NCBI GenBank assembly: GCA_016201735.1
Contig: JACQCH010000040.1
Location: forward strand, 18,822 to 82,821
DNA from: Candidatus Omnitrophota bacterium
Lineage (GTDB): Bacteria; Omnitrophota; Gorgyraeia; 1-14-0-20-64-10
Reading direction: 5' to 3'
Length of the DNA: 64,000 nucleotides
The number at the start of each line of letters is the position of its first letter. The stretch's first letter is position 1. Below, piece after piece: positions 9,745-34,525 of this stretch. A program made the translations under genes and the position numbers. A model generated the notes under the pieces. It did no database searches. It had not been told where the DNA came from and saw nothing but the letters and a program-made list of their open reading frames with translations.

Positions 9745-10763
9745 CTCCGATCGAGGTAGCCGGCCGAAGGATCGGGCCGGGGGAACCCTGTTTCATCATC
9801 GCCGAGGCGGGGGTCAACCACAACGGCAAGATCGAGTCGGCCAAGCGGCTGGTGGACCGGGCGGCGGAGGCCGGCGCCGACTCGGTCAAGTTCCAGACCT
9901 TCCGGGCCGACCGGCTGGCCAGTGACCAGACCCGGACGATGCTCAAGCAGCTGGAACTGTCCGAGCGGGATCATCGAGAGCTATTGGAACATTGCCGCAA
10001 GAGAGGAATCCAGTTTCTCTCCACCCCGTTCGAGGAGGAGAGCGCCGATTTTCTGGAACAACTCGGCGTGGCGGCATTCAAGATTCCGTCGGGGGAGGTG
10101 ACGAATCTTTCGTTCCTCTCCCATCTGGCGCGGAAGGGGAAACCGCTGATTCTCTCGACGGGGATGTCCACCTTGGAGGAGGTGGAAGAAGCGGTGCGGG
10201 TCATCCGGGAGACCGGGAATCGAAAGCTGGTCCTGCTTCACTGCGTCAGCCGCTACCCGGCCGATCCGAAGGAGGCCAACCTGCGGGCGATGGTGACGAT
10301 GGGGTCCCGGTTTTCCGTCCCGATTGGATATTCGGATCATACCTTGGGGAGTGAAGTCGCGCTGGCGGCAGTCGCCTTGGGGGCCTGCGTTATCGAAAAA
10401 CATTTCACCCTGGACCGGAACCTGCCGGGACCGGACCACCGGGCCTCTTTGGAACCGGCGGAGCTGGCGGCGCTGGTCAAAGGAATCCGGGTGGTCGAAT
10501 CGGCGCTGGGGCACGGGCGGAAAGAGCCGTCGGTCTCCGAAGCAGAAACGGCCCGGATTGCCCGGAAGAGTCTCGTGGCGCTCAGGGACATTCCGGCGGG
10601 GACCTCGTTGACGCGGAAATTCATCGGCGTCAAACGTCCGGGAGACGGTCTGCCTCCTTCCATGCTGACTCGGGTCATCGGTCAGATCGCCAAGGCGGAC
10701 ATCCCGGCCGACACCCTGCTCACCCTGGAGATGCTTACTAGAGGAAAAGAGGGGCTGGGATGA
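9738..10763 (+). CDS. legI: Nonulosonic acid synthase (NeuB/LegI family)
   Basis: 'IGPGEPCFIIAEAGVNHNGKIESAKRLVDRAAEAGADSVKFQTF' is the classic NeuB-family N-terminus. A C-terminal SAF-like domain is present. Confidence 0.8.
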   Translation: MVTPIEVAGRRIGPGEPCFIIAEAGVNHNGKIESAKRLVDRAAEAGADSVKFQTFRADRLASDQTRTMLKQLELSERDHRELLEHCRKRGIQFLSTPFEEESADFLEQLGVAAFKIPSGEVTNLSFLSHLARKGKPLILSTGMSTLEEVEEAVRVIRETGNRKLVLLHCVSRYPADPKEANLRAMVTMGSRFSVPIGYSDHTLGSEVALAAVALGACVIEKHFTLDRNLPGPDHRASLEPAELAALVKGIRVVESALGHGRKEPSVSEAETARIARKSLVALRDIPAGTSLTRKFIGVKRPGDGLPPSMLTRVIGQIAKADIPADTLLTLEMLTRGKEGLG

Positions 10764-11974
10764 GGACGATTGGAGTGGTCACGGTGGGGCGGTCCGACTA
10801 CGGAATCCTGGTTCCGATCTTAAGAAGGATCCAGCATGATCCGGAACTTGAACTTTATCTGTTTGTCGGGGGAACTCATCTGTCTTCGGAATTCGGCCGG
10901 ACCGTTCGGGCCATTGAAGCGGACGGTTTTCCAATTGAGTCCCGGATCAGGATGGATCTCTCTTCGGATGCACCGGAAGGGATCACCCGATCAATGGGCT
11001 CGGGGATGCGCGGATTTGGTCGGGCCTTTGTTTCTTCCCGCCCGGACCTGTTGCTGGTCACCGGAGATCGCTTCGAGATGTTCTCTGCGGCGGCCGCCTC
11101 GGTGCCGCTGAATCTTCCCCTGGCGCATCTTCATGGCGGAGAGATCTCCGAAGGGGCGATGGACGACCGTTTCCGCCATGCGATCACGAAACTGAGCCAC
11201 TTGCATTTCGCCGCCACGGGGGAAGCCAAGAATCGGATCCTTCGGATGGGGGAGGAACCATGGCGGGTGACCGTCTCAGGGGCTCCCAGCTTGGACAATC
11301 TCCACTCCATGCCTCTTCTGGATCCTCGAGACCTGGAGGCCCGGTTCGGGCTCCGACTCAAAGAGCCCCCCCTTCTGGTGACCTACCATCCGGTCACCTT
11401 AGAGTGGGAGCAGACCGATGTGCAGATCCAGGATCTGCTTCAGGCTCTGGGCCGCGCGGATCTGCCGGTGGTCTTCACTCAGACCAACGCGGACACCTCC
11501 GGTCGAACGATTCAAAGAAGGATTCGGGAATTTGTGAAAAGCAACCCGAGCCGGGCGCAGATCGCCAATAACCTGGGAACTCAAGGATACTTCAGCCTCA
11601 TGGCCGCGGCCGCCGCAATGGTCGGAAATTCTTCGAGCGGTTTTGTGGAGGCGCCGTCGTTCGGGCTTCCTGTGGTCAACGTGGGAAAGCGCCAGCAGGG
11701 AAGGCTCCGGGCCGCGAATGTGATCGATGTCGAGTGCGGGGAGGAGGCGATCGCGGATGGAATCCGCAGAGCGATCGCCCCGGAATTCCGGGCCTCGTTG
11801 AAAGGGTTGAAAAATCCCTACGGGGAAGGGAAGGCCTCGGAGATCATTGTCCGGGGATTAAAAGAAGTTGAGTTGGGTCAACGGTTGATCATCAAAAGGT
11901 TTATCCCATGGTCCGATGCCTCCTCTTGGGCGGGGGCGGTCACGCCCGCGTCCTCATCGACTGCATCCGTTTAA
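10760..11974 (+). CDS. legG: Hydrolysing nucleotide-sugar 2-epimerase (NeuC/LegG family)
   Basis: 'MRTIGVVTVGRSDYGIL...HLHGGE...' matches the UDP-GlcNAc 2-epimerase fold family. ATGA overlap with the upstream gene. Confidence 0.75.
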   Translation: MRTIGVVTVGRSDYGILVPILRRIQHDPELELYLFVGGTHLSSEFGRTVRAIEADGFPIESRIRMDLSSDAPEGITRSMGSGMRGFGRAFVSSRPDLLLVTGDRFEMFSAAAASVPLNLPLAHLHGGEISEGAMDDRFRHAITKLSHLHFAATGEAKNRILRMGEEPWRVTVSGAPSLDNLHSMPLLDPRDLEARFGLRLKEPPLLVTYHPVTLEWEQTDVQIQDLLQALGRADLPVVFTQTNADTSGRTIQRRIREFVKSNPSRAQIANNLGTQGYFSLMAAAAAMVGNSSSGFVEAPSFGLPVVNVGKRQQGRLRAANVIDVECGEEAIADGIRRAIAPEFRASLKGLKNPYGEGKASEIIVRGLKEVELGQRLIIKRFIPWSDASSWAGAVTPASSSTASV

Positions 11975-12570
11975 GCCAAGCGGCGGATCCGGTGGGCATC
12001 CTGGACTCCGACCCGGTTCTTTGGGGCTCGGAACGGATGGAGGTGCCCATTCGCGGTTCGGATGAGCTCCTTTCCAAGATGAAACAGGAGGGGGTTACCC
12101 ATTTCGTCGTTGGATTGGGCGGCGTCGGGGATAATCAACCCCGACGCCGTCTGTTCGACCTGGGGGTTGCGCATGGGTTGGTCCCCTTGACGGTGTGTCA
12201 CCCGCGGGCGATCCTTTCGATGTGGGCCTCCATCGGTGCGGGTTGCGCAATCCTGCCTGGAGCGGTGGTTAATGCGGGCGCTCATCTGGGCGTTAACGTG
12301 ATCGTTAACTCCGGAGCGATTGTGGAGCATGACTGCCGGATTGAGGATCACGTTCACGTGGCCAGCGGGGCGAGGCTCGCCTCCACCGTCCATGTGAAAG
12401 CCGGCGCCCACATTGGAGCGGGGGCGACCGTCCGACAGGGCTTATCCATCGGGGAAAGAGCCGTCGTTGGGGCGGGAGCCGTGGTCGTTAAGAATGTGGA
12501 GCCCGGGACGGTCGTGACCGGGGTCCCGGCCAGGGAATGGAGCCGAGCGGAACGAGGAGGGGATTCCTAA
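11908..12570 (+). CDS. Hexapeptide-repeat sugar N-acetyltransferase (NeuD/PglD/LegH family)
   Basis: 'MVRCLLLGGGGHARVLIDCI' N-terminal Rossmann-like domain plus a C-terminal left-handed beta-helix with repeats 'IGAGA..V..G..IG'. Confidence 0.7.
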   Translation: MVRCLLLGGGGHARVLIDCIRLSQAADPVGILDSDPVLWGSERMEVPIRGSDELLSKMKQEGVTHFVVGLGGVGDNQPRRRLFDLGVAHGLVPLTVCHPRAILSMWASIGAGCAILPGAVVNAGAHLGVNVIVNSGAIVEHDCRIEDHVHVASGARLASTVHVKAGAHIGAGATVRQGLSIGERAVVGAGAVVVKNVEPGTVVTGVPAREWSRAERGGDS

Positions 12571-12572
12571 CC

Positions 12573-13658
12573 ATGTATACGGATCTAAGTCAATTCTGCA
12601 TCGATAAAGAAAAAATCCTTCAGGAAGCCATTACCTTGGTGGACCGAAGTCGGTTAGGAATCGTGTTGGTCGTGGATGAAGAGCGACATCTGATAGGTAC
12701 CATCACCGATGGAGATGTGCGGCGGGCTATGCTGGCCAAGTTTGATATGTCCCAGCCCCTGACTGCTCTTCTGGAAAGAAAAGCCCGCACGGTTCACGCC
12801 CACCCCATCGCAGCTCCGGCAGGAGCCGATCGATCAGTCTATCTGAATCTGCTGAGAACCCATGGGATTCTCCACCTTCCGATTCTGGATGAAATGGGGC
12901 AAGTGACCGGACTGGTGACCATGCAGGAATTCCTGCCGGAACAGGTACTTCCGCTCCACGCGGTGGTCATGGCCGGCGGATTGGGGACTCGCCTGCATCC
13001 GTTGACGGAAGACACGCCAAAGCCGATGCTGCGGGTCGGAGATCGTCCCCTGCTGGAGATCATCATCCGCCAGTTGCGTGAAGCGGGGATTCGAGAGGTC
13101 AAAATCACTACCCATCATAAGCCGGAAAAGATCGAGGCCCATTTCGGAGATGGAAAGAATTTCGGCGTAAAGCTCTCGTATGTGGAGGAGAACCAGCCGT
13201 TGGGAACCATTGGGAGTTTGGGGCTTTTAGAAGTTCCCCAAGAAACGACGCTCGTCATCAACGGGGATATCCTGACGCGGTTGGACATTCGAGCGATGTT
13301 GGCGTTTCACAAGGAGCACAAGGCAGATCTGACTGTGGCGGTCCGCCATTACGATGTCAAGGTCCCTTACGGCGTTATCGAATGTGAGGGACCCGTTGTT
13401 CGGAAGGTAAGCGAAAAGCCAGTGATCGGATTTTTTGTGAACGCCGGAATCTATCTTTTGGATCCGGCCGTCTATCAATACATCCCATGCGGACAGCGGT
13501 TTGACATGACCGATTTGATCCAACGCATTCTCAAGGAGGGCCGACCGGTCATCAGCTTCCCGATACGTGAGTACTGGCTGGATATCGGCCAGCACGCCGA
13601 TTACGAGGAGGCGCAGGGACAGGTCAAGGATTGGGAACTATTGCAAGATGGCCGATAA
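12573..13658 (+). CDS. ptmE: CBS-domain nucleotidyltransferase (PtmE-like; GlcN/GlcNAc-1-P guanylyltransferase candidate)
   Basis: ATG 12573 after a GGAGG. N-terminal CBS pair ('IVLVVDEERHLIGTITDGDVRRAM'), then 'AVVMAGGLGTRLHPLTEDTPKPML', the NTP-transferase motif. Confidence 0.65.
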   Translation: MYTDLSQFCIDKEKILQEAITLVDRSRLGIVLVVDEERHLIGTITDGDVRRAMLAKFDMSQPLTALLERKARTVHAHPIAAPAGADRSVYLNLLRTHGILHLPILDEMGQVTGLVTMQEFLPEQVLPLHAVVMAGGLGTRLHPLTEDTPKPMLRVGDRPLLEIIIRQLREAGIREVKITTHHKPEKIEAHFGDGKNFGVKLSYVEENQPLGTIGSLGLLEVPQETTLVINGDILTRLDIRAMLAFHKEHKADLTVAVRHYDVKVPYGVIECEGPVVRKVSEKPVIGFFVNAGIYLLDPAVYQYIPCGQRFDMTDLIQRILKEGRPVISFPIREYWLDIGQHADYEEAQGQVKDWELLQDGR

Positions 13659-14652
13659 ATCGAAGGAAGGTTTTTGGAAAGACAAGCGGGTTCTCGTGAC
13701 CGGAGCCGGAGGATTCATCGGGAGTCACCTCGCCGAAAGGCTGGTTGAGCTTGGAGCGAAGACCCGGGCGTTCGTCCATTACCGGGCCGACGGTTCCTGG
13801 GGATGGCTTAACAACTCTCCTTGGAAGGATCGAATGGAAGTCCTTGCCGGCGACATTTGCGATAGGGACAGCGTGTTCCAGGCGGTGGAAGGAATGGAGA
13901 TCGTTTTTCATTTGGCGGCCCTTATCGCCATTCCTTATTCGTATCATGCGCCCTATTCCTATTATCGAACCAACGTGGAGGGGACGCTCCACCTCCTGCA
14001 GGCCGCCAGGGCATGCCGCCCCCATCGCATCATTCATACCTCGACCAGCGAGGTGTATGGGACCGCCCAATACTGTCCCATCAATGAGGGGCATCCGTTA
14101 CAAACACAGTCCCCTTATGCGGCCAGTAAATGCGGAGCGGACAAACTCGTGGAAGCCTTTTTCCATTCCTATGAACTTCCGGTGGTTACCGTCCGTCCCT
14201 TCAATACCTTTGGGCCGCGTCAATCGAGTCGGGCCATTGTACCGGCCATCATTACTCAATGCCTGACCCGTGAGACCATTCGGCTGGGGAACCTGCATCC
14301 CACCCGAGACCTTAATTTCGTCGAGGACATTGTGGAAGGATTCCTTTGCGCCGCCATCGCCGAAAAAGCGGTGGGTTGGACGGTGAACCTGGGTACCGGC
14401 AGGGAAATATCGATTCAGACATTGGCTGAAAAGATCGCCGAACTGACCTCCCATTCCATAGCTCTCGAACAAGATTCGAAACGGGTTCGGCCCCAACACA
14501 GCGAGGTGGAGCGGTTGGTGGCGGACAATTCGTTGGCTCGGCAGCTTTTGGGATGGGCTCCTAAGATTAGGTTGGAAGAGGGGCTTAAAGTTACCATTGA
14601 CTGGACAAGGGAGCATTTGGATGGCTATCGGCCAGGCGTCTACGTTCTCTGA
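13648..14652 (+). CDS. NAD-dependent nucleotide-sugar 4,6-dehydratase (LegB-like)
   Basis: 'KRVLVTGAGGFIGSHLAERL' Rossmann motif and 'YAASK' catalytic dyad. Extended SDR, 334 aa. Confidence 0.65.
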   Translation: MADKSKEGFWKDKRVLVTGAGGFIGSHLAERLVELGAKTRAFVHYRADGSWGWLNNSPWKDRMEVLAGDICDRDSVFQAVEGMEIVFHLAALIAIPYSYHAPYSYYRTNVEGTLHLLQAARACRPHRIIHTSTSEVYGTAQYCPINEGHPLQTQSPYAASKCGADKLVEAFFHSYELPVVTVRPFNTFGPRQSSRAIVPAIITQCLTRETIRLGNLHPTRDLNFVEDIVEGFLCAAIAEKAVGWTVNLGTGREISIQTLAEKIAELTSHSIALEQDSKRVRPQHSEVERLVADNSLARQLLGWAPKIRLEEGLKVTIDWTREHLDGYRPGVYVL

Positions 14653-15808
14653 AATCCCACTGTCGGTTCCGCTCTTTCAGGGGAATGAGTGGAAGTACCT
14701 GAAGGAATGCCTGGACGCCGGTTGGGTTTCTTCAGCAGGCAGTTTTGTAGACCGGTTTGAGCGGGAAATAACCTCCGCTGTGGAGGCTCCGTATGCGGTG
14801 GCGACGGTCAATGGAACGGCTGCCTTGCACATTGCCCTGAAAACGACAGGCCTGGAACCTGAGGAAGAAGTATTGGTTTCCGATCTGACCTTTATCGCCC
14901 CGGTGAATGCGATACGGTACTGCGGCGCGCATCCGGTGCTGGTGGATTCCGATCCATCCTCCTGGCAAATGGATACAGAGCGGTTGGAGCAATTTCTGCA
15001 GGAAGGGTGCGTCTTTAAAGAGGGCAAGCTGTTCAATAGGAAAACGCTCCGCCGGGTCCGAACCATCCTGCCGGTACATATCTTGGGACTCACTTGTGAA
15101 ATCGACCGAATCGCGGCATTGGCGAGTCAATTTCGATTAAGCGTCGTTGAAGATGCTGCGGAAGCCCTCGGCGTGCGGTATCAAGACAGACACGTCGGCA
15201 CTTTTGGAGATGTCGGCGTGCTGAGTTTCAATGGAAACAAGGTAGTTACGGCTGGAGGAGGCGGCATGCTGGTGACCCGTCATAAGGAACTGGCCCGTTG
15301 CGCCCGATATTTAACCACTCAGGCCAAGGATGACGATTTTGAATCCATCCATCACGAGATAGGATACAACTATCGATTAACCAACCTCCAGGCCGCCTTG
15401 GGTGTGGCGCAGTTAGAACAATTGCCGGCCTTCCTTGTCAAGAAACGTTGGATCGCCCAATCGTATGCGGACCGTCTAAAGGATCTGGAAGGATTGACCT
15501 TGATGCCGGTCCCGAGCCATACAGAGCCGACCTTCTGGTTGTATACGGTGCTTCTACCCGAAGGGACAGCGTTGTCCCAGCGCAATCGTATCTTAATGGG
15601 AATGCGGGAGCAGGGGATTGGCGCAAGACCCCTTTGGCATCCGATTCATGGGCAACCCCCTTATCAGAAATGCGAGGTCCTGGGGGGAGAGATCGCTACG
15701 GACCTTTACCATCGAGGCATCAGTCTTCCTTCCTCAGTCGGACTCTCTGAAGAAGAGCTGACCCGGTGCGTCGAGGTGTTTCGGCAGGAGTTTCGGGTCT
15801 CCGGATGA
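14621..15808 (+). CDS. DegT/DnrJ/EryC1/StrS PLP-dependent sugar aminotransferase (LegC/PseC-like)
   Basis: 'IPLSVPLFQGNEWKYLKECLDAGWVSS' is the family N-terminus. The PLP-lysine region 'SFNGNKVVTAGGGG' is present. Confidence 0.75.
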   Translation: MAIGQASTFSEIPLSVPLFQGNEWKYLKECLDAGWVSSAGSFVDRFEREITSAVEAPYAVATVNGTAALHIALKTTGLEPEEEVLVSDLTFIAPVNAIRYCGAHPVLVDSDPSSWQMDTERLEQFLQEGCVFKEGKLFNRKTLRRVRTILPVHILGLTCEIDRIAALASQFRLSVVEDAAEALGVRYQDRHVGTFGDVGVLSFNGNKVVTAGGGGMLVTRHKELARCARYLTTQAKDDDFESIHHEIGYNYRLTNLQAALGVAQLEQLPAFLVKKRWIAQSYADRLKDLEGLTLMPVPSHTEPTFWLYTVLLPEGTALSQRNRILMGMREQGIGARPLWHPIHGQPPYQKCEVLGGEIATDLYHRGISLPSSVGLSEEELTRCVEVFRQEFRVSG

Positions 15809-17820
15809 CGATTTTTGTAGAATATCTAACACTCCTAAAGGAACTCACCTTCGTTTTCCCCCGGCTCGGACGGGGAAGCAAATGCTTTTTTATCGATGCG
15901 ACCCGACCGGCCCTCATCCTTGCCAAGGTTTTCGAGCGGATCGTCGGGACGGAAATTCGCGCGCTCTCATTCCGTCTGATTGACATCCGGGATGAAAAAG
16001 GTCAGTTTTTGCGATGGCGGCTCCACTACAAGGACCTCATCGAGGTCCGGGCGGAGATCCTGAAAGATCCGGAATTCCGGCGTCTGCTGGAAGGATCTTT
16101 AAATGAGGACCGGCTGCCCACCTTCCTGGCCAAGGCCCTGAGTCTCTTCACTTTTTCCAATCGGCAGACCCTCTGGCGGGCCTTGTTAGTCATTCAGATT
16201 TTTGTCTGGAAGGCGCGACGCGAACAGATAGAGAAACCGGTGCTTCTTTTGGAGCGCCGGCCATGGTTTTACATCCTTCAACGATATGCCTCTCGATTTG
16301 GTCTTCAACTGGTTCCAGGGCCTCCCTCTTGGCGGTCGGATCTGCGGTCGATGTTGAAAAGCGTGCTCGGGCCGGGAGGATCCGCGTTGAAGCGGTTTCT
16401 TGTGTATAAGAAGAACCGTGTGGACTCGTTGGGAGCGGCCGACTCTTCCGGCTTTAAGATCGCCGTAGAATATTATGGCCATCTCAATCTCAAGCGGCCC
16501 GAATATTATTCGGACATGTTTTTCTTGCGCGGCCCTGAGCTGTCCGCTCGGAATCTGCTGGTTCTGTTTGGAATACCGCAAGATCCTTTAACCCCTCAGA
16601 AATGGGAGGAGATTTCCAGTCTTGGAATCTCCGCATTGGCGACTCATCCCAAAGCAACGGAAGTATCGAATGCGCCGCTCTTCGAGCCCCAGATTCGATG
16701 GAAGGCCGGTCGGCGGGAAAAAGAATTGCTTGCCGGCCTTTCCCCATCGATCGAAGGCCGGTGGTTAAAAAGCCATCTCCACCAATATTTCGCATCGCGT
16801 GCTTTTTGGGAAGATCTATTTGCTCAACATCGAGTGAAGCTTTTCATCACCTGGTATAAATACGATGGGGCTCATTGCCCGATTGCCGATGCCTTAGAAG
16901 GTTTAGGAGGAGTGACCGCCATCTATCAGCGGGCCTACGAGGCGCATCCCTCGGCGGAGACCCTCGTGGCGGTGGATCTGCTTTTTGCTTTCTCCCCCCG
17001 GATGGCTGAGATGGAACGGCGCTCTGGGTCGAAGATCCGGTATCACGTGGCGACGGGATATGTTGGGGATTATCGTTTTCCCCTCCTCAAGGAAGGGGCT
17101 CAGAAGATCCGGCAGCAGCTTCAGCGCCATGGGGCCCGCCGGATCTTGGCCTTCACCGATGAAGGTTCCATCGATGATACCCGGTGGCACACCGGTCATG
17201 AATTCCAGAGAGAAAACTACGCCTTCCTGCTGCAAAAAGTCCTTCGGGAGTCATGGTTTGGACTGGCGATCAAACCCAAAGACCCTTCCTCCTTGCGTCG
17301 AAGGTTGGGGAAGGTGAGTAAGCTCCTTGAAGAAGCGGAAAAGACCGGTCGGTGTTTCGTCTATCAAGAAGGAGGCCTTAACAGCTCCATCCCTCCCGCG
17401 GCGGCTGCCTTAGCCTCCGATGCGCTGATTCATGGACACCTGAGTGCGGGAACAGCCGCTGTCGAGTCGGCGTTGGTCGGTGTGCCCACCCTATTGCTCG
17501 ACCGAGAGGGGTGGCCTCTTTCGCCGCTGTACCGATTGGGGTTGGGGAAAGTGGTTTTCAACGATTGGGATACCTTCTGGGCCATTCTTTATGAGCACTG
17601 GCATCGGCCCGAAGGAGTCCCTGGATTTGGAGATTGGACTCTTATTCTGGAAGAGATGGATCCATTCCGAGACGGACGAGCCGCTGAACGGATCGGGACG
17701 TATCTTGCTTGGCTCTTGGACGGATTTAAGGGAGGGTTGTCCCGGGAAACAGTCTTGGCGGATGCCGCTCAAAGATATGCTGAGCGATGGGGGGCGGATA
17801 AGGTGACCAGCGTCTTATGA
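15805..17820 (+). CDS. Hypothetical ~670-aa protein, paralog A (putative GT-B-like C-terminal domain); candidate nonulosonic-acid transferase
   Basis: ATG 15805 (ATGA overlap) gives 'MTIFVEYLT...', which aligns with the start of paralog B. C-terminus 'ASDALIHGHLSAGTAAVESALVGVPTLL' resembles the GT-B C-terminal donor-binding region. No named family recognised. Confidence 0.55.
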   Translation: MTIFVEYLTLLKELTFVFPRLGRGSKCFFIDATRPALILAKVFERIVGTEIRALSFRLIDIRDEKGQFLRWRLHYKDLIEVRAEILKDPEFRRLLEGSLNEDRLPTFLAKALSLFTFSNRQTLWRALLVIQIFVWKARREQIEKPVLLLERRPWFYILQRYASRFGLQLVPGPPSWRSDLRSMLKSVLGPGGSALKRFLVYKKNRVDSLGAADSSGFKIAVEYYGHLNLKRPEYYSDMFFLRGPELSARNLLVLFGIPQDPLTPQKWEEISSLGISALATHPKATEVSNAPLFEPQIRWKAGRREKELLAGLSPSIEGRWLKSHLHQYFASRAFWEDLFAQHRVKLFITWYKYDGAHCPIADALEGLGGVTAIYQRAYEAHPSAETLVAVDLLFAFSPRMAEMERRSGSKIRYHVATGYVGDYRFPLLKEGAQKIRQQLQRHGARRILAFTDEGSIDDTRWHTGHEFQRENYAFLLQKVLRESWFGLAIKPKDPSSLRRRLGKVSKLLEEAEKTGRCFVYQEGGLNSSIPPAAAALASDALIHGHLSAGTAAVESALVGVPTLLLDREGWPLSPLYRLGLGKVVFNDWDTFWAILYEHWHRPEGVPGFGDWTLILEEMDPFRDGRAAERIGTYLAWLLDGFKGGLSRETVLADAAQRYAERWGADKVTSVL

Positions 17821-18722
17821 GTATCCGCATCATTCCCCGTTTAGATATCAAGGGACCCAATGTGGTCAAGGGCGTTCATTTAGAGGGCTTGCGCGTCATG
17901 GGGGTTCCCGAGCTGTTTGCTGCCCAATACTATCAGGATGGAGCGGATGAGTTAATCTACATCGATGTGGTAGCCAGTCTTTACGGCCGCAACAGCCTTG
18001 ACGAGGTTGTTCGGCGTGCGGCGCAGAACATCTTTATCCCCCTAACCGTCGGCGGTGGTATCCGAACGATCGATGACATCCGTCGTTTACTAAGAGCCGG
18101 CGCGGACAAGGTAGCGATCAATACCGCCGCAATCAAGAATCCAAAACTGATCCAAGAAGCCGCCCGCGCCTTCGGTTCTCAGTGCATTGTGCTTTATATC
18201 GAAGCCAAGAAACGGGGGCCGGGCAGATATGAATGTTTAACGGATAACGGTCGGGAATCGACCGGCTGCGACGTGTTTGAGTGGGTGAGGCAAGCAGTTC
18301 ATTTGGGTGCGGGAGAGATTCTCCTCACCTCCATCGATCAGGAAGGGACCGGAAAGGGTTATGACTTAGAGTTGACCGCGGAGGTGGCCCAGCGTGTTGA
18401 TGTACCGGTGATTGCCTCCGGAGGGGCCGGAGCACCCGAACACATTCGAGACGCCGTTCTCTTGGGCAAGGCAGACGCCGTTTGCGCAGCGTCCGTATTT
18501 CACTACCAATTAATTCAGACAGGGGAAGCCTCGCTTAACCCCATCCGGTTTGAAGAAGGGAACGTTGAGTTTTTAAAGGGGCGGCTTCCCATCGCCGCGT
18601 TTACCCGGCAGCGAATCGCGCCCTTGAGGATTCCGGAAATTAAAGAGTACCTGGAGAAAGCCGGGATCCCCATTCGCCGACTCAATCTGGAGTCCATGAG
18701 CAACTCAAGGAAAATGGAATAA
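17817..18722 (+). CDS. wbuZ: Imidazole-glycerol-phosphate synthase cyclase subunit homolog (HisF-like, WbuZ-type)
   Basis: 'IIPRLDIKGPNVVKGVHLEGLRVMGVPELFAAQYYQDGADELIYIDV' is a HisF TIM-barrel signature. Its position in a glycan locus next to a HisH-like gene fits a sugar-modification role. Confidence 0.75.
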   Translation: MSIRIIPRLDIKGPNVVKGVHLEGLRVMGVPELFAAQYYQDGADELIYIDVVASLYGRNSLDEVVRRAAQNIFIPLTVGGGIRTIDDIRRLLRAGADKVAINTAAIKNPKLIQEAARAFGSQCIVLYIEAKKRGPGRYECLTDNGRESTGCDVFEWVRQAVHLGAGEILLTSIDQEGTGKGYDLELTAEVAQRVDVPVIASGGAGAPEHIRDAVLLGKADAVCAASVFHYQLIQTGEASLNPIRFEEGNVEFLKGRLPIAAFTRQRIAPLRIPEIKEYLEKAGIPIRRLNLESMSNSRKME

Positions 18723-18725
18723 ATA

Positions 18726-19445
18726 ATGGATAGATCCCCGCACCCATCCCGAGTGCTTATTGTCGATTACGGCTCGGGCAATCTCTTCAGCATCGAAAGG
18801 GCCCTGCACTCTTTAGGGGCGGAGGTTGAGATCAGCGCTGATCCCGACGCGCTCCGGCGCGCTCCGGGAGTGATTTTGCCTGGTGTGGGCGCCTTCGGAG
18901 ACGGAATGAAAAATTTAAGGGAAAAGGGATTGCTGACCCCCTTGGCGGAATACGCCCAATCCGGTCTGCCCCTGCTGGGTATCTGTCTGGGGATGCAGCT
19001 CCTATTCACGGAGAGCCAAGAATTTGGCCGTCATGAGGGACTCGGACTTATCCCCGGGAAGGTCGTGAACCTTCGGCCGACGGACCCTCAAGGGAGAAGA
19101 GTCAAAATCCCGCATGTGGGGTGGAGCCAATTAATGTGTCCACCTTCTCGTCCGCATTGGAACGATACAATCCTCATGGGTTTGCCGGTGGGGGAAGCCA
19201 TGTATTTTGTCCATTCTTTTATTCCCGTTCCTGAGGATTCTGCCGTTGTCGCCCAGATGATCTATGGCGGACATCTTTACTGTGCTGTTGTGGAAAGACG
19301 AAACATGATAGGATGCCAGTTTCATCCAGAAAAGAGCGGTCCTGTGGGCTTGCGTTTCTTGCGGAATTTCTTAACTCGAATCAAACCACCCAAAGAAGAG
19401 TTCACCGCGGTAAATCCTGCCGCAGTAATAAGGAGACGTGAATGA
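18726..19445 (+). CDS. wbuY: Class I glutamine amidotransferase (HisH-like, WbuY-type)
   Basis: 'VLIVDYGSGNLFSIERAL', 'LPGVGAFGD' and 'GICLGMQLL' (catalytic Cys) form a HisH signature. Confidence 0.75.
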   Translation: MDRSPHPSRVLIVDYGSGNLFSIERALHSLGAEVEISADPDALRRAPGVILPGVGAFGDGMKNLREKGLLTPLAEYAQSGLPLLGICLGMQLLFTESQEFGRHEGLGLIPGKVVNLRPTDPQGRRVKIPHVGWSQLMCPPSRPHWNDTILMGLPVGEAMYFVHSFIPVPEDSAVVAQMIYGGHLYCAVVERRNMIGCQFHPEKSGPVGLRFLRNFLTRIKPPKEEFTAVNPAAVIRRRE

Positions 19446-20653
19446 GCCTTGTGATGGGGATAAACCCTGTGGTTGGAGGAATGGAGAAACAACTGCTCAC
19501 TCAGCCCCAGGAGGTGAAGTTCTGCAGGCGATGCGTGGTTTCCAATCAAAGGCCGCGAATCCGGTTCGATGAGGAAGGAGTTTGCAGTGCGTGCCGGTTC
19601 GCTTACGAGAAGTATCACGTCGTCGATTGGGGGAGCCGCGAGGCGCAGTTGGAACAACTCTTGGAAAAACACCGAAGGAAAGACGGCACTTGGGATGTGA
19701 TCGTTCCCTGCAGCGGTGGGAAGGATTCTTCCTATGTGGCCCATCAGCTTAAGGCCAAATACGGAATGCATCCCTTGACAGTCACCTGGGCTCCTTTCCG
19801 CTCCACGGAGATCGGCTATAAAAACTTTCTTTCCTTCGTCGATTCCGGTTTCAATAATTTAACGGCCTATCCCAACGGCCGTTTCCATCGCAAGTTAGCC
19901 CGGCTTTCACTCGAGGAGTTGGGCGATGCCTGGCAGCCGTTTACCTACGGCCAAATGTGCTACGCCTTTCATATCGCAAAGCGTTTCAACATCAACCTCA
20001 TATTCTTTGGCGAAAACGGAGAAGCGGAATATGGGGGGGATCCGAAAAACAATTACCGACCCTATATGCCGTTCGAAGATTGGGCCCTGCTTTATTTCAA
20101 GGGCACAACGATTGATGAACTTGTTCAATTCGGACTCAAGCACAAGAATTACTTGACGGCTCAGGACTTCGACCCATCGGATCTCACCTTTTATCGACCC
20201 CCGGCGATCGAGCAGCTTGACCTGACGGGGATTCAGATGCACTGGTATTCCTACTATCACAAATGGGTTCCCCAAGAAAATTATTATTACAGCATTGATC
20301 ATACGGGCTTCTGCGCCAATCCCGAGCGGTCAGAAGGGACCTATTCGAAATATGCCAGCCTCGATGACCGGATGGACGGATTCCACTTTTACATGGGATA
20401 CATCAAATTTGGTATCGGCCGGACTACCTCTGATGTCGCCCATGAGATTCGGGACGGTCATCTGACACGGGAAGAAGGGGTGCGGCTGGTTCGGCGCTAC
20501 GATGGGGAATTCCCTTCAAAATACTTTGCAGAATTTCTTGCCTACCTGGATATCGATGAAAACCATTTTTGGAAAGTGGCCGAGCATTACCGGCAGCCTC
20601 ACCTATGGGAGAAAATCAACGGGGAATGGAAGCTGACGCACCAGGTGAGCTAG
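19442..20653 (+). CDS. wbuX: N-acetyl sugar amidotransferase (PP-loop ATP-pyrophosphatase, WbuX/PseA/PtmG family), copy 1
   Basis: N-terminal Zn ribbon 'CRRC...CSAC' and PP-loop 'VPCSGGKDSSY'. 403 aa. Visibly lower GC than its neighbours. Confidence 0.7.
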   Translation: MSLVMGINPVVGGMEKQLLTQPQEVKFCRRCVVSNQRPRIRFDEEGVCSACRFAYEKYHVVDWGSREAQLEQLLEKHRRKDGTWDVIVPCSGGKDSSYVAHQLKAKYGMHPLTVTWAPFRSTEIGYKNFLSFVDSGFNNLTAYPNGRFHRKLARLSLEELGDAWQPFTYGQMCYAFHIAKRFNINLIFFGENGEAEYGGDPKNNYRPYMPFEDWALLYFKGTTIDELVQFGLKHKNYLTAQDFDPSDLTFYRPPAIEQLDLTGIQMHWYSYYHKWVPQENYYYSIDHTGFCANPERSEGTYSKYASLDDRMDGFHFYMGYIKFGIGRTTSDVAHEIRDGHLTREEGVRLVRRYDGEFPSKYFAEFLAYLDIDENHFWKVAEHYRQPHLWEKINGEWKLTHQVS

Positions 20654-20728
20654 AGGATTCCCGCTGGAGTTTACCCTCGGCTCCAACCGAGGGTGGGAAT
20701 GACACGCAGCGGTAGAGGAGGGCCATGA

Positions 20729-21958
20729 ATGGCTGAGCAAGCGGTGAAGGAATCGGAGCGGCTGGAGTCCAGGTACGGTCTGCCGGAGAAGGTGATTTTC
20801 TGCAAATGGTGCCTGATATCCAACCAGCGCCCCTGTTCCTCGGTGGAGTTCAAGCATGGGAAGGACCGGCAGCACCGCAGCCTCCACATTGATGAAGAAG
20901 GAATCTGCGACGCCTGCCGTTTTGCGGAGCAGAAGGAACAGGTCGACTGGGCTGACCGGGAGAAGGAGCTCGTCAAACTTCTGGACAAGCACCGCCGGAA
21001 AGACGGCGGCTACGACTGCGTCGTCCCCGGAAGCGGCGGCAAGGACAGCTGTTATACTTCCCACGTCTTGAAATACAAATACGGGATGCATCCCTTGACC
21101 GTCACCTGGCCTCCCATCCTTTATACCGACATCGGGTGGAAAAATTTCCTGGGCTGGATCGAGGTGGGGGGCTTTGACAACATCACCTACAGGCCGAACG
21201 GGCGGGTTCACCGCCTGCTCACCCGGCTTTCCATCGAGAATCTTCTGCATCCCTTCCAGACCTTTATCCTGGGGCAGAAGAACCTGGCTCCCAAGATGGC
21301 GCTTCAGATCCAGGTGCCGCTGATCTTCTATGGAGAGAACGAAGCCGAATATGGGAACCCGATCGCGGACAATTCCACCTCCCTGCGGGACAAATCGTAC
21401 TACACGATGAACCATCTCTCGGAGATCTCCCTGGCCGGCCTGCCGGTTCCGGAGCTGATGGAGCGGCACGGCCTGTCCCTGAATGATCTGAAAGCCTATC
21501 TGCCGGCGGACAGCCGGGAGCTGGAGCGATTCCCCATGGAGGTCCATTACCTGGGTTATTACCTGAAATGGACTCCGCAGGAGAGCTATTACTACGCCGT
21601 CGAGCACACGGGCTTCGAGGCCAACCCGGTTCGGACGGAAGGGACCTACAGCAAGTACAACAGCTTGGATGACAAGATTGATGGACTGCACTATTTTACT
21701 ACTTTTATTAAATTTGGCCTTGGGCGGGCCACGTACGATGCTTCCCAGGAGATCCGGAACAAACACCTCACCCGGGAAGAGGGAGTGGCCTTGGTCCGGC
21801 GATTTGACGGGGAGTTTCCCCAACGGTATTTCCAAGAGGTGATGGAGGCGATCGGAATGAAAGAGGAGCGATTCCTTGAGCTGTGCGATCAGTTCCGATC
21901 GCCTCACCTCTGGAAAAAGGAGGAGGGCCGGTGGCAATTGCGGCATCAGGTTTCGTGA
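20729..21958 (+). CDS. wbuX: N-acetyl sugar amidotransferase (WbuX/PseA family), copy 2
   Basis: 'CKWC...CDAC' Zn ribbon and 'VPGSGGKDSCY' PP-loop. It is a paralog of copy 1, about 55-60% aa identity by eye. Confidence 0.7.
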   Translation: MAEQAVKESERLESRYGLPEKVIFCKWCLISNQRPCSSVEFKHGKDRQHRSLHIDEEGICDACRFAEQKEQVDWADREKELVKLLDKHRRKDGGYDCVVPGSGGKDSCYTSHVLKYKYGMHPLTVTWPPILYTDIGWKNFLGWIEVGGFDNITYRPNGRVHRLLTRLSIENLLHPFQTFILGQKNLAPKMALQIQVPLIFYGENEAEYGNPIADNSTSLRDKSYYTMNHLSEISLAGLPVPELMERHGLSLNDLKAYLPADSRELERFPMEVHYLGYYLKWTPQESYYYAVEHTGFEANPVRTEGTYSKYNSLDDKIDGLHYFTTFIKFGLGRATYDASQEIRNKHLTREEGVALVRRFDGEFPQRYFQEVMEAIGMKEERFLELCDQFRSPHLWKKEEGRWQLRHQVS

Positions 21959-22007
21959 GAGGGTATCCTGCACCTTCCGATCCTTAGCCGATGCTCCAGG
22001 AATCCCT

Positions 22008-24083
22008 ATGACGATCTTTGTTGAGAATCTAACTTTTAAAAGCTGGCTGACGGCCGTGCTCCCTCGGTTGAGGCGGGGCGGGCGTTGCCTCTTTATTTAT
22101 TCCACCCCAACCGCTCGGGTTCTCACCCGATTTTCCGATCGGTTCTTGGGAACGGAGACTCGGTTGTTTGAGTTCCGGTTGATCGATGTCCGTGATGAAA
22201 AGGGGCAGCTCCTGCGTTGGAGAATCACTTATCAGGATTTGGCGGAGGTTCAACAGGAGATATTGAACGATCCCCGATTCCGGTTCTTGCTGGAGGGCCC
22301 ATTGAATCAGGGCCGGCTTCCTACCTTCTTCGCGAAGGATCTGGGCACGATCAGTCTCTCCGATCGAAAAACGCTCTGGCGGGTCCTGCTCACCATCCAG
22401 ATTTGCGTCTGGAAGAGCCGGCGCGATCGGATCGAAGGGCCGATCCTTGTGATGGAGCGCCGCCCTTGGTTTGATATCCATCAGCGGTATGCCTCCCGGT
22501 TTGGGCTTCGGCTGATTCCGGCTTCTCCCTATCAGCGGGGGAATCTCCGACAGACCCTGAAAAGATGGCTGGGACCGGGTGGGGTGGTATTAAAACGGTT
22601 TGTTCGGCGGTCATCCTCGCTCTCGATGACGCTCGAGGGCGGGAATGACAACAAATCAGGTCCAAAGCTGGCCGTGGAATATTACGGCCATCTGAACTTG
22701 AGACAGCCGGAATGCTACTCGGATTTATTCTTCTGGCACCGGTCTGCCTTGTCCGGACAGGATTTGTTGGTTCTGTTTGGAGTTCTCGACGACCCTTTAA
22801 ATTCCAAGAAGTGGGAGGAGATCACGAGCTTAGGGATTTCCGCTCTTGTGACTCATCCGAAGGCAACGAGAATCTCCGAGGCCCCGATTTTTATCCCAAG
22901 GGTTCGATGGACGCCGCATCGACTTGAAAGAGATCTTCTGGCCTCTCTTCCTCGGTCTAGGGAAGGTCAGTGGATGAAAAGAGAGATCCGCCATTACCTC
23001 TGCCAGCGTGCCTTTTGGGAAGATCTGTTCGCCCAACAGAAGGTGAAGCTCTTTATTGCCTGGTACAAATACGATGGGGCCCATTGCGCAATCGCCGACG
23101 CCTTGGAGAGTTTAGGGGGAGTCACCGCCATCTATCAGCGGGCCTATGAGGTGCACCCATCGGCGGAGACTACCGTGGCGGTGGATCTGGTTTTTGGTTT
23201 CTCCCCCCAGGGGGTCGAGCTGGAACGGCGCTGTAGCTCGAAGATTCGGTATTACGTGACCACCGGATATGTCGGGGATTATCGTTTCCCACTCCTCAAG
23301 GAAGGATCTCAGAAGATCCGGCAGCAGCTTCAGGGCCATGGGGCCCGGCGCATCCTGGCCTTCACTGATGAAAGTTCCGCCGGCGATTCCCGGTGGCACA
23401 GCGGTCATGAATTCCAGAGAGAAAATTATGCCTTTCTGCTCACCAAGGTTCTCCAGGAACCTTGGTTTGGCCTGACGATCAAGCCAAAGGCCCCGGTCTC
23501 TTTGCGCCGGCGGTTGGGGCCGACGGCCCGACTCCTTGAGGAAGCGGAAGCCACCGGTCGCTGTTTTGTTTATGAGGGGGAGAGCCTCCACGGCTCGGCC
23601 CCCGTGGCGGCCGCGGCGTTGGCCGCCGATGCGCTGATTCATGGGCACTTATGTGCCGGAACTGCCGGGATGGAATCGGCCTTAGCCGGCGTGCCGACCT
23701 TGATGCTGGATCGGGAAGGATGGCCGCCGTCACCGCTGTACCGGTTGGGGGAAGGCCAAGTGGTTTTTAAGGACTGGGATCTTTTTTGGAAGGTTCTCGT
23801 TGAACATTGGACCCGGCCCGGTGGGGTTCCCGGATTTGGAGACTGGTCGCCGATCTTGGAGGAGCTGGATCCGTTTCGAGATGGGCGGGCGGCCGAGCGG
23901 ATCGGAATGTATCTTTCCTGGCTTTTGGAGGGGTTCAAGGCCGGGTTGTCCCGGGAGACAGTCATGGCCGACGCGGCCAACCGGTATGCCCAGCGGTGGG
24001 GGAGGGATAAGGTGACTCAAGTTGACGGGAAAGCTCTTCTTTCTCCTGTCCCCGCCGAGATTCCTGTGAGGAGCGGGGTTTAA
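22008..24083 (+). CDS. Hypothetical ~690-aa protein, paralog B of 15805..17820
   Basis: 'MTIFVENLTF...'. The C-terminal ~320 aa are nearly identical to paralog A ('WYKYDGAHC.IADALE.LGGVTAIYQRAYE.HPSAET...'). Confidence 0.55.
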   Translation: MTIFVENLTFKSWLTAVLPRLRRGGRCLFIYSTPTARVLTRFSDRFLGTETRLFEFRLIDVRDEKGQLLRWRITYQDLAEVQQEILNDPRFRFLLEGPLNQGRLPTFFAKDLGTISLSDRKTLWRVLLTIQICVWKSRRDRIEGPILVMERRPWFDIHQRYASRFGLRLIPASPYQRGNLRQTLKRWLGPGGVVLKRFVRRSSSLSMTLEGGNDNKSGPKLAVEYYGHLNLRQPECYSDLFFWHRSALSGQDLLVLFGVLDDPLNSKKWEEITSLGISALVTHPKATRISEAPIFIPRVRWTPHRLERDLLASLPRSREGQWMKREIRHYLCQRAFWEDLFAQQKVKLFIAWYKYDGAHCAIADALESLGGVTAIYQRAYEVHPSAETTVAVDLVFGFSPQGVELERRCSSKIRYYVTTGYVGDYRFPLLKEGSQKIRQQLQGHGARRILAFTDESSAGDSRWHSGHEFQRENYAFLLTKVLQEPWFGLTIKPKAPVSLRRRLGPTARLLEEAEATGRCFVYEGESLHGSAPVAAAALAADALIHGHLCAGTAGMESALAGVPTLMLDREGWPPSPLYRLGEGQVVFKDWDLFWKVLVEHWTRPGGVPGFGDWSPILEELDPFRDGRAAERIGMYLSWLLEGFKAGLSRETVMADAANRYAQRWGRDKVTQVDGKALLSPVPAEIPVRSGV

Positions 24084-24085
24084 GG

Positions 24086-26021
<1,936 letters not shown>

Positions 26022-26939
26022 GTGAAGGTTCTCGTCACAGGAGGTTCCGGCCTTTTGGGCGCTCACCTGCTGGTTGGACTGCAGGGGCGGCGATACGATG
26101 TCGTGGGGACCGATCGGAATCCCTGGTGGGGGGACGTTCCGGTGGATTTTCGCGTGGGAGATTTGAGCGATCCGGAATTTTTGAAATCGCTGATCCGTTC
26201 CGTCCGGCCGGAACTTTTGATTCACTGCGCGGCCCTGGTGGACGTGGAGGCCTGTGAACGCAGGCCCGAGGAGGCCTCCCGGATCAACGGGAAATTGCCC
26301 GGGTTTTTGGCCGGGGCGGCGGGAGACCGCTGCCGGGTGGTTTTTCTTTCAACCGATTCGGTCTTCTCTGGGGAGAAGGCCTTTTCTTCAGAGGAGGATC
26401 TTCCATCGCCTCGCAATGCCTACGCCAGTTCCAAACGGGAAGGGGAAGAGCAGGTCCAGCGCCGCGCCCCGCATTGCCTGATCCTTCGAACCAACTTCTA
26501 CGGGTGGTCTTCAGGAAGGAAAAAGACCTCCGCTGAATGGATGGTCCGATCTCTTCAGACCCAACAGCCGATGACTCTATTTGAGGATCTGTTTTTCACT
26601 CCCATCTATGTGCCTGATCTGGTGGAGGGGCTGATCCGCCTTTTGGAATGCCAGGTGGAGGGGATCTTTCACCTGGGGGGGCGGGATCGGGTCTCGAAGT
26701 ACCAGTTCGGACAGCTTCTGGCCGAGGAGCTGGGAGTTTCGATGGACCGGGTTCAACGAGGTTCGGTGGAGAGGGCCGGGTTCGCCGCCGAACGGCCCAG
26801 GGATATCTCGTTGAACAGCCAACGGTACTGTGAGATCACAGGGGCGGATCTGCCCGGATGCAGGGAAGGAATCCGCCGGTTCGCCGCCGACGGTTCCAAA
26901 CCGCTGTCGCAGAGGTTCCAATGTCCGGTCCTTCGGTAA
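26022..26939 (+). CDS. RmlD-like nucleotide-sugar 4-reductase (dTDP-4-dehydrorhamnose reductase family; WbvR-like)
   Basis: GTG start. 'MKVLVTGGSGLLGAHL' Rossmann motif and 'YASSK'. About 305 aa, typical for the RmlD substrate-binding fold. Confidence 0.6.
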   Translation: MKVLVTGGSGLLGAHLLVGLQGRRYDVVGTDRNPWWGDVPVDFRVGDLSDPEFLKSLIRSVRPELLIHCAALVDVEACERRPEEASRINGKLPGFLAGAAGDRCRVVFLSTDSVFSGEKAFSSEEDLPSPRNAYASSKREGEEQVQRRAPHCLILRTNFYGWSSGRKKTSAEWMVRSLQTQQPMTLFEDLFFTPIYVPDLVEGLIRLLECQVEGIFHLGGRDRVSKYQFGQLLAEELGVSMDRVQRGSVERAGFAAERPRDISLNSQRYCEITGADLPGCREGIRRFAADGSKPLSQRFQCPVLR

Positions 26940-27814
26940 CGGTCTTGATGGCCGCTCACAACGCCGCTCCCTTTTTGCGGCCGGCGGTGGATTCAGTCTT
27001 GAATCAGAGCTTCTCGGACTTCCGACTGCTGGTGGTCAACGACGCCTCCACGGACGACACCAGGGAGATTCTCCGGTCCTACCGGGATAACCGGATCCAG
27101 CTTTTGAATCTTCCGAAAAACGGGGGGCAGACCCATGCCCTGAACGTCGGGCTGGAACGGATCTCCACCCCTTGGATTGCCCGGATGGACGGCGATGACA
27201 TCTGCGCCCCGGATCGACTGGAGGAGCAGATGAAAGCGGTCCGCACGGATCCGCGGCTGGGCTGCGTGGGCACGTTCGCCTGGTGTTTTACTCAAGATCC
27301 GCAGCATCAGGAGGGAGTGATCGAGAAGCCCCTGGAGGATGCCGCGATCCGCTCGGAACTGCTCCGGGGAACCCCAATAATTCACGGGACGCTCCTGATC
27401 CATCGGGAAGCGCTGCTGGCTGTCGGTGGATACGATGAGCGGTACCGATACTCGGCCGACCGGGCCCTGTTCAACCGTCTGTTCCATCTGCCCGGTTTCC
27501 TTGGGCGGAATCTGCCCGTTCCTTTGTTGGGAGTCCGGCGCCACCCGGCCCAGGGATCCTTTTGCCGCCGGGCCGCGGATGAAAACATTGAGATCTTCTC
27601 GGAGATGCTCCAGGAGAAGGGGCGACCTTGGGCTGAGAGGCGAGTCCTTCAGGAGAGTCTTTCCTTTTCGTACCGCTTCCGGGCCCGGTGCAGCCGGTCG
27701 GAAGGGAAGTTCACTAAGATTCCCGGTGATCTGCTTCATGCCCTTCGGGTTCGTTCCGCCTCTTGGATGGAAGATCTCCGGAAAGGGAGCCGCCATGTTC
27801 CGGTGGATGGTTAA
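26921..27814 (+). CDS. Glycosyltransferase family 2
   Basis: Internal ATG gives 'MSGPSVTVLMAAHNAAPFLRPAVDSVLNQSFSDFRLLVVNDASTDDT'. It is a paralog of the 24086 GT2. Confidence 0.7.
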   Translation: MSGPSVTVLMAAHNAAPFLRPAVDSVLNQSFSDFRLLVVNDASTDDTREILRSYRDNRIQLLNLPKNGGQTHALNVGLERISTPWIARMDGDDICAPDRLEEQMKAVRTDPRLGCVGTFAWCFTQDPQHQEGVIEKPLEDAAIRSELLRGTPIIHGTLLIHREALLAVGGYDERYRYSADRALFNRLFHLPGFLGRNLPVPLLGVRRHPAQGSFCRRAADENIEIFSEMLQEKGRPWAERRVLQESLSFSYRFRARCSRSEGKFTKIPGDLLHALRVRSASWMEDLRKGSRHVPVDG

Positions 27815-28646
27815 ACCGTTTCTGGTTGTTTTTGTCTACCATGATGTCTCGGAGAAGCCCAGCCCCTTCAACCGGCGGTTCGGATTGAACGTGCCGCCGC
27901 GGCTGTTCTCTCGGCAGATGGATATGATCCGGGAACTGTTCCATCTGGTCGACCCGGCCCAACTACGCCGTGGAAGGTTCCCCACGCCGGCGGCATTGAT
28001 CACGTTCGATGATGGGAACTCGAGTTACTTTAAAACGGCCCTTCCCATCCTGAAAGAAAGGGAGATTCCCTCCCTGTCGTTTCTGAACCTGGGTCCGATC
28101 CGCGGGGAGATCTGCTGGTCGGGATTGGCCTCTTACCTTCAAACCGAAGAGCCGGCGTTTCGATCCTCTGATGGGGACCCATCACCGGATGCCTTCTGCC
28201 GGTTCACCCAGGAGGAAGTGGCCCGCTACCTGGACTCGGTGGACCAGGCCAAACTCTTTGAACGGGTCCGGGCTTTTCGAGGTCTCATGGCGACAGAGGC
28301 GGAACTGGCGGCGGCGGCCGATGAACCGTTGGTCGGTCTGGGAAATCATCTGTACAATCATTACAACGCCACCCTGCTGGGAGATCGGCTCCGAAAGGAA
28401 TATCGGGTGAATCAAGAGGTTTTGGACGCCCATCCCCGCGGGTTTCGGTTTTTCAGCTTTCCCTTCAGCCGGATGGATCGCCGGGCGATCCGGATGATCC
28501 GTGAGGAGGGAGCCGACGCGATCTTCTCGGGAAGGGGTTTTGCCAATCTCCCCGGTCAGGAGCGGGTTTATTCCCGAATGGAGATGAAGGAGTCCATAAT
28601 GGAACCGAAAGAGTTGATGGCTCATGTCCTTAGAAATCTCATCTGA
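27795..28646 (+). CDS. Polysaccharide deacetylase (NodB homology / CE4) family protein
   Basis: ATG 27795 after an AAAGGGAG. 'FVYHDVSE...', 'ITFDDGNSS' and 'HLYNH' are NodB-domain-like motifs. The long 5' extension of ORF 27426 is rejected. Confidence 0.5.
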   Translation: MFRWMVKPFLVVFVYHDVSEKPSPFNRRFGLNVPPRLFSRQMDMIRELFHLVDPAQLRRGRFPTPAALITFDDGNSSYFKTALPILKEREIPSLSFLNLGPIRGEICWSGLASYLQTEEPAFRSSDGDPSPDAFCRFTQEEVARYLDSVDQAKLFERVRAFRGLMATEAELAAAADEPLVGLGNHLYNHYNATLLGDRLRKEYRVNQEVLDAHPRGFRFFSFPFSRMDRRAIRMIREEGADAIFSGRGFANLPGQERVYSRMEMKESIMEPKELMAHVLRNLI

Positions 28647-31248: not shown

Positions 31249-31257
31249 GGAGTTCGC

Positions 31258-32217: not shown

Positions 32218-32221
32218 CGTT

Positions 32222-34507: not shown

Positions 34508-34525
34508 GCAGATGAGGGGGTAAGA

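Follow-up and report, generated by a model that had tools for sequence, protein, structure and literature searches.

Two old paralogs, rather than near-identical repeats, flank a sugar amidotransferase cassette in an Omnitrophota legionaminic-acid gene cluster

In a stretch of 64,000 nucleotides from a Candidatus Omnitrophota bacterium (hereafter the window; contig JACQCH010000040.1, assembly GCA_016201735.1), two paralogous genes lie on either side of a hisF/hisH/wbuX cassette, which raises the question of whether they act as direct repeats from which the cassette can be excised. The first gene, A (HY211_06115, 'hypothetical protein' at NCBI), is an open reading frame (ORF) with a start codon at 15805-17820 on the plus strand and encodes 671 amino acids (aa); the second, B (HY211_06140), at 22008-24083 on the same strand, encodes 691 aa, including a C-terminal tail of 18 residues that is extra relative to A. 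An earlier note on this DNA had described about 0.9 kb of near-identical sequence in the 3' halves of the two genes, and had proposed that recombination between these halves switches an acetamidino modification on and off. We consider it likely that A and B are instead intact, old, lineage-specific paralogs, with C-terminal parts kept alike by selection and about 300 bp once shared by gene conversion, that they would act as legionaminic-acid (Leg) transferases, and that they belong to a fixed operon and not to a switch.

Self-BLASTN returned one alignment between the two genes, 15929-17807 versus 22132-24016, with 71.6% identity over 1,892 nucleotides (nt). This alignment covered nearly the entire genes, and the paralogy thus runs along their whole length instead of being confined to the 3' halves, as had been claimed. 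With an offset of 6,209 bp between the copies, a repeat scan gave 300-nt blocks that were 66-71% identical, and the two proteins share 68% identity. In a codon alignment, the region 16850-17810 was 77% identical at the nucleotide level and 79% at the amino-acid level, versus 64% and 59%, respectively, upstream of 16850. The N-terminal halves are therefore the more diverged, as had been noted, and the 0.96 kb for which 80-90% identity had been estimated falls short of that range.

The 3' halves align in frame and without indels, and the similarity within them is uneven. Identity in 50-codon windows reached 0.84-0.88 only at about 16850-17220, and was 0.68-0.76 from 17224 to the stop codon. The best segment, codons 371-470 of A (16915-17214, plus strand), is 87% identical to its counterpart in B (23124-23423, plus strand), and the longest exact matches between the two genes are 26, 24, and 23 nt. 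An identity above roughly 90% across several hundred bases was not reached, and near-identity was limited to short patches in the self-alignment. The strings quoted in the earlier note lie inside this patch or just upstream of it; similarity at the level of the patch had been stretched over 0.9 kb.

The greater likeness of the 3' halves is a property of the whole family. A and B belong to an unnamed family of about 700-residue proteins, referred to here as FAM. Conservation, measured as the fraction of sequences with the majority residue in 69 full-length relatives, rose from 0.39 in the N-terminal to 0.63 in the C-terminal half, with the C-terminal domain the more conserved in all 69. Stronger purifying selection on this domain across the family would keep the 3' halves alike, and no homogenisation between A and B is needed to explain it. 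In GT-B-fold enzymes, it is usually the C-terminal domain that binds the nucleotide-sugar donor. Conservation of the patch across the family was 0.56, versus 0.67 in the region after it.

How old is the pair? In a protein collection of 5.8 billion sequences, where A corresponds exactly to one entry (P0001), we found about 120 homologues of A, all of them named 'hypothetical' and none with a Pfam domain, in Omnitrophota, Planctomycetes, Acidobacteria, Nitrospirae, Chloroflexi, and other phyla. A second search, using an alignment, recovered this set again and added no remoter, annotated relatives. After A and B themselves, the next homologue to either was at most 54% identical in the protein search, and the two were reciprocal nearest neighbours in each of three segments (500/500, 497/500, and 403/500 bootstraps). 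Asymmetric divergence of one copy was rejected, because A and B are equidistant from outgroups. Both retain all 34 invariant residues of the family, and their ratios of nonsynonymous to synonymous substitution rates (dN/dS), which range from 0.09 to 0.37, indicate purifying selection on both; A and B both appear to be functional. Judged from these comparisons, an old duplication of a FAM gene in this lineage would have given rise to A and B, and this event is probably specific to the lineage but ancient, since synonymous sites are saturated.

Related loci mostly carry a single copy: in 76 of 78, no second FAM gene lay within 10 kb to the left or right, and one apparent double proved to be a frameshifted single gene. 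In many uncultured bacteria, FAM stands at the end of a Leg biosynthesis operon: Leg-pathway genes were found near it in 46 of 77 loci, with legC directly upstream in 24 of 68. The usual order in close relatives is epimerase-pglD-hisF-hisH-wbuX-ptmE-legB-legC-FAM; locus L003, for example, has the order from pglD to FAM. The amidotransferase cassette was present in 20 of 77 loci, where it lies upstream of ptmE and not between two FAM genes; its gain and loss among lineages are therefore independent of recombination between FAM genes. Here, the cassette follows A and is itself followed by B. One may speculate that this order arose through tandem duplication of a block and subsequent reciprocal loss; no gene remnants supporting such a course were found.

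The layout that had been described, with paralogs flanking a hisF/hisH/wbuX cassette on the same strand, was confirmed together with the gene identities; the cassette proper measures 4.1 kb, and not 5 kb. It consists of four plus-strand genes. The first, at 17817-18722, encodes a HisF/WbuZ-like cyclase subunit of a sugar amidotransferase (PF00977, E = 1.7e-69), which scored 300.9 bits against TIGR00735 hisF (cut-off 294.55) and 276.1 bits against TIGR03572 WbuZ, below the cut-off of 299.7; gene context favours a WbuZ-like subunit. It is followed by a HisH/WbuY-like glutaminase subunit at 18726-19445 (PF00117; TIGR01855, 197.1 bits, cut-off 105.4) and by two WbuX-type N-acetyl sugar amidotransferases, copy 1 at 19442-20653 (TIGR03573, 333.9 bits) and copy 2 at 20729-21958 (345 bits; cut-off 203.2 for both).

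The two wbuX copies are 48% identical to each other at the amino-acid level, and each has orthologues of 73-80% identity in other Omnitrophota (79% in L003 for copy 1; 73-80% in other Omnitrophota loci for copy 2). On this sequence evidence, the wbuX duplication appears older than that of A and B, and independent of it. The tandem genes resemble two long-separated WbuX subtypes, whose amidino products possibly differ. Both wbuX types are also carried by L003 (4216-6661), in the opposite order.

The region is part of a long plus-strand glycan-biosynthesis cluster. Upstream of A are the Leg genes, encoding NeuA-like, short-chain dehydrogenase/reductase (SDR), NeuB, 2-epimerase, PglD-like acetyltransferase, PtmE-like, LegB, and LegC proteins. 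The last three, a PtmE-like nucleotidyltransferase (PF00483 with a CBS domain), a LegB-like dehydratase (TIGR04180, 426.5 bits, under the cut-off of 475), and a LegC aminotransferase (TIGR04181, 465.6 bits, over the cut-off of 420), occupy 12573-15808 on the plus strand, directly upstream of A. ATGA overlaps join the legC stop codon to the start of A and the A stop codon to the start of the hisF-like gene. The proteins A and B both begin with MTIFVE. Promoter-like and terminator-like sites showed no excess across the region, and the whole looks like a single operon.

What, then, might A and B do? Scans of both proteins against Pfam and NCBIfam gave no match, a Pfam scan of 49 family members at E <= 5 gave scattered noise only, with no PF01973 (MAF_flag10), and a profile search of Protein Data Bank (PDB) sequences at E <= 10 gave 0 matches. 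An AlphaFold2 model of A, built from a 49-sequence alignment, had a predicted local distance difference test score (pLDDT) of 90.9 and a predicted TM-score (pTM) of 0.90. A Foldseek search of this model against the PDB gave 54 matches at E <= 0.001, and the 50 listed were mostly GT-B enzymes, in keeping with a fold of two Rossmann-like domains. The matches listed included HepE (4xsu, 1.2e-6), OtsA/trehalose-6-phosphate synthases, TagF (3l7m), and a polysialyltransferase (5wcn), at sequence identities of 9-15%. Moreover, the family has invariant motifs of its own, namely D452-E453, K490-P491-K492, and H543-G-H545. In the putative D/E-D/E-G motif, D452 and E453 were present in 49 of the 49 members; the third residue was N in 43, S in three, and G only in A. 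The Leg pathway is otherwise complete in the window, and we saw no other Leg transferase candidate there, such as Maf or a sialyltransferase domain recognised by Pfam.

A and B are most plausibly legionaminic-acid transferases, a reading that draws on the predicted fold and the gene neighbourhood. Both would transfer Leg-type nonulosonic acids, and the two copies might be kept for different donors or acceptors, for instance N-acetyl sugars on the one hand and, on the other, acetamidino sugars produced by the intervening HisF/HisH/WbuX proteins. More tentatively, and with somewhat less than even confidence, we propose that FAM is a widespread, undescribed family of GT-B Leg transferases marked by D-E-N, K-P-K, and H-G-H motifs, with two variants here, one for N-acetyl and one for acetamidino forms. 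Several observations weigh against a transferase role. The top TM-scores (target) in the Foldseek search were about 0.5, and GT-B-fold epimerases were among the matches; the sialyltransferase HP motif is absent, as no pair of columns with H followed by P was found in at least 70% of the 49 members; and fold and gene neighbourhood are the grounds of the assignment, with no sequence match in Pfam, NCBIfam, or the PDB.

These observations leave room for other GT-B-fold enzymes of the Leg pathway that are not glycosyltransferases, such as a TagF-like phosphotransferase/polymerase or an epimerase-like protein. Indeed, the Foldseek matches to uridine diphosphate N-acetylglucosamine (UDP-GlcNAc) 2-epimerases (5xvs, 8sxw, 5enz) and to TagF (3l7m) had E-values like those of true glycosyltransferases, and the invariant motifs of the family stand in place of sialyltransferase motifs. 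However, the pathway already has a homologue of the hydrolysing 2-epimerase at 10760-11974 (PF02350), together with the full enzyme set, and such an assignment would leave the window with no Leg transferase candidate in sight. We regard it as unlikely, and retain the transferase reading.

The high-identity patch calls for an explanation of its own. We scanned the two genes by maximum likelihood, using only codons for residues that A and B have in common, and the scan singled out the patch, a segment of 100 codons. Identical codons made up 66 of 80 inside the patch versus 161 of 360 outside it (Fisher p = 4.5e-10), and the observed likelihood ratio was reached by 0 of 200 permutations. Synonymous divergence (dS, Nei-Gojobori) was 0.29 in the patch, versus 1.56 in the upstream and 1.95 in the downstream flank. 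Codon-usage bias was rejected as the cause, since usage alone predicts a fraction of identical codons of 0.42 and 0.82 was observed; in the flanks, the observed fraction was 0.43-0.46 and the expectation 0.37, so that synonymous sites there are essentially close to saturation. As a control, the same test was applied to ten orthologue pairs of similar divergence, and 8 of the 10 gave no effect. With no close relatives sampled, the two genes come out as sisters in each segment, and the patch and its flanks differ in depth of divergence alone.

The patch is thus probably a single old gene-conversion tract: long after the duplication, about 300 bp would have been copied between the genes, and the copies would since have diverged by 13%. 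Of the suggestion of recent duplication or ongoing gene conversion, conversion stands in the form of this one old tract, whereas a recent duplication is at odds with the saturated synonymous sites outside it; moreover, nothing suggests that A and B are still being homogenised. Two findings run counter to a simple conversion. Two of the control pairs, L037-L040 (p = 0.0013) and L028-L037 (p = 0.025), which have a locus in common and are thus not independent, show a modest synonymous excess in the patch region; in addition, the dN/dS of the patch, 0.37, exceeds that of the flanks, which is odd for conversion followed by purifying selection.

Because of the excess in these two pairs, constraint at the nucleotide or codon level in the patch region keeps some standing as a source of the similarity, whether through RNA structure, a regulatory site inside the gene, or an antisense gene that overlaps it. 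An antisense ORF on the minus strand (16903-17235) does coincide with the patch. It was rejected as the cause, however, since other stop-free antisense runs in A and B reach 108-187 codons and the equivalent of the patch is open on the antisense strand in only 8 of 69 orthologues, versus 11-14 of 69 for other windows. The lack of an effect in most control pairs and the promoter-like and terminator-like sites, which are not in excess, also argue against selection at the nucleotide level, which we consider improbable. An old conversion tract remains the better account of the patch.

Could the two genes nevertheless recombine? In the model that had been put forward, RecA-mediated recombination between the 3' halves excises the whole cassette, leaves one chimeric gene, and so switches the acetamidino modification. 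The repeats are indeed direct and in frame, without indels in the 3' half, so a crossover would in theory leave the predicted chimeric gene in frame; the resulting layout, legC-FAM without the cassette, resembles that of L005, L008, L022, and L030; and the past conversion tract implies that the copies have interacted at least once. However, 28% of positions differ overall, even the best 300 bp are 13% diverged, and exact runs reach at most 26 nt. The minimal efficient processing segment is about 23-27 bp in Escherichia coli. In Bacillus subtilis, this segment is reported to exceed 40 bp, and RecA-dependent recombination in transformation drops steeply, by 200-400-fold at about 8% divergence and by about 45,000-fold at about 21% (PMC4824099).

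The predicted products were also sought. Among the homologues in the collection of 5.8 billion sequences, there was no protein with 69-99% identity to A, the interval between B (68%) and A itself in which an A/B chimera would fall. Structural variants, which the earlier note had anticipated, were not seen in the three sequences at hand: the NCBI contig and the single-run assemblies of SRR12113409 and SRR12113410 are all undeleted, and they agree at 100% from A through the cassette to B. These two assemblies match the window at 7914-25825 and 11045-27820, respectively, at 100%, and span every junction. Phase variation through simple-sequence repeats was rejected as well, as there are none in A or B; the sole homopolymer of at least 7 nt in 15.7-24.2 kb is a G7 at 20033, within wbuX copy 1, and is probably too short for efficient slippage. 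Finally, a deletion is irreversible and could only turn the trait off, and is for that reason not a switch. We regard switching by deletion as very unlikely. The repeats do not form an effective substrate for recombination, and what is seen here are two diverged paralogs of an ordinary kind, set in an operon.

That the duplicated layout is an artefact of assembly or binning, such as the joining of variants from two strains into a single contig, is scarcely credible and was rejected, for although the sequence comes from a metagenome-assembled genome (MAG), both independent single-run assemblies reproduce every junction at 100% and an identity of 72% is far too low to mislead an assembler.

The repeats are therefore too diverged to drive a deletion switch, and they reveal no regulatory mechanism. 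The locus shows cleanly how near-identical repeats can be mimicked by purifying selection on a single domain, and the scan of synonymous sites separated the probable old conversion tract from the background of a conserved domain. To our knowledge, dedicated legionaminic-acid transferases are scarcely known; the unannotated GT-B family described here, with its tight linkage to Leg biosynthesis across many uncultured phyla, is a candidate for the missing transferase that can be tested.

Some of the related loci showed peculiarities of their own. In L066 (6209-13130), from a betaproteobacterial MAG, the FAM, wbuX, and ptmE homologues are each split into two adjacent pieces, which looks like the result of indel errors in a long-read assembly and not like real pseudogenes. 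L037, binned as Bacteroidia, is syntenic with L027, L028, and L040 of Rhodocyclaceae and a related uncultured betaproteobacterium, with FAM proteins that are 62-70% identical, which suggests mis-binning or horizontal transfer; this is the group in which the modest synonymous excess was observed in the patch region.

Other features of the cluster were also noted. The GT2 glycosyltransferase genes at 24086-24982 and 26858-27814 are likewise paralogs, with 67% nucleotide identity over 450 nt (24277-24713 versus 27118-27560), so that several duplications have occurred within the cluster. A second sugar-activation sub-cluster, at 30244-38580, comprises genes for a GFO/IDH/MocA oxidoreductase, methyltransferases, a SIS-domain protein, a transaldolase-family protein, an FkbM methyltransferase, an HpcH/HpaI aldolase, two SDRs, a second CTP_transf_3 cytidylyltransferase (36869-37648), and a 2-hydroxyacid dehydrogenase. 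Its product may be a further acidic sugar activated with cytidine monophosphate (CMP). Two AsnB-type glutamine amidotransferases (Asn_synthase and GATase_7), located at either end of the cluster (2079-4097 and 50567-52408), may amidate sugar carboxylates. An FkbH-like protein (40026-41867), followed by a MaoC-dehydratase/SDR fusion (41839-43083) that is the only convincing minus-strand gene of the cluster, hints at glyceryl or acyl decoration of the glycan. In addition, a 985-aa protein (47606-50563) combines two matches to group-1 (GT4-type) glycosyltransferase domains with a C-terminal DUF218, and two ORFs, at 28624-30243 (539 aa) and 56241-57185 (314 aa), had no Pfam match at E <= 1e-4.

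In the literature, we found no paper linking Omnitrophica with nonulosonic acids, and the comparisons available are with better-known bacteria. In Tannerella forsythia, Tanf_01245, for pseudaminic acid (Pse), and TFUB4_00887, for a Leg derivative, have identical C-termini and divergent N-termini and adjoin CMP-sugar genes, and so offer a precedent for the transferase reading of A and B; the conserved C-terminus has been proposed to bind CMP (PMC5420450). Likened by description and not by sequence comparison, these transferases share with A and B their position next to genes for CMP-nonulosonic acids, a predicted GT-B/TagB-type fold, and a conserved C-terminal part joined to a differing N-terminal part. 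They differ in being about 445 aa long, alleles of different strains, and 100% identical in their C-termini, whereas A and B are about 680 aa long, lie in one operon, have C-terminal parts that are 76-81% identical, and have no HP motif.

The maf family offers a second comparison. Its genes phase-vary through poly-G tracts, whereas A and B contain no simple-sequence repeats. In Campylobacter jejuni, the flagellin glycosylation island has several maf paralogs, which are putative nonulosonic-acid transferases, scattered among its genes for Pse/Leg and for the acetamidino modification (PseA/PtmG, WbuX-type; PMC13130089, PMC9298399). A and B resemble them as paralogous putative transferases among Leg and WbuX-type genes; however, Maf proteins correspond to PF01973, which neither A nor B matches, and the window has no flagellar genes. 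The cassette itself resembles the WbuX/WbuY/WbuZ system, known as PseA/PtmG in Campylobacter, in its two above-cut-off TIGR03573 proteins and its HisH-like and HisF-like subunits, and differs from it in having two tandem WbuX proteins (48% identical) and a HisF-like subunit just under the WbuZ cut-off. Lastly, repeat-associated gene conversion between dispersed bacterial paralogs has been described, for example in Mycobacterium tuberculosis (PMC12046097). The probable tract described here differs in being single, old (13% diverged), and without continuing homogenisation; what it shares with such cases is a local island of low synonymous divergence within otherwise saturated paralogs.

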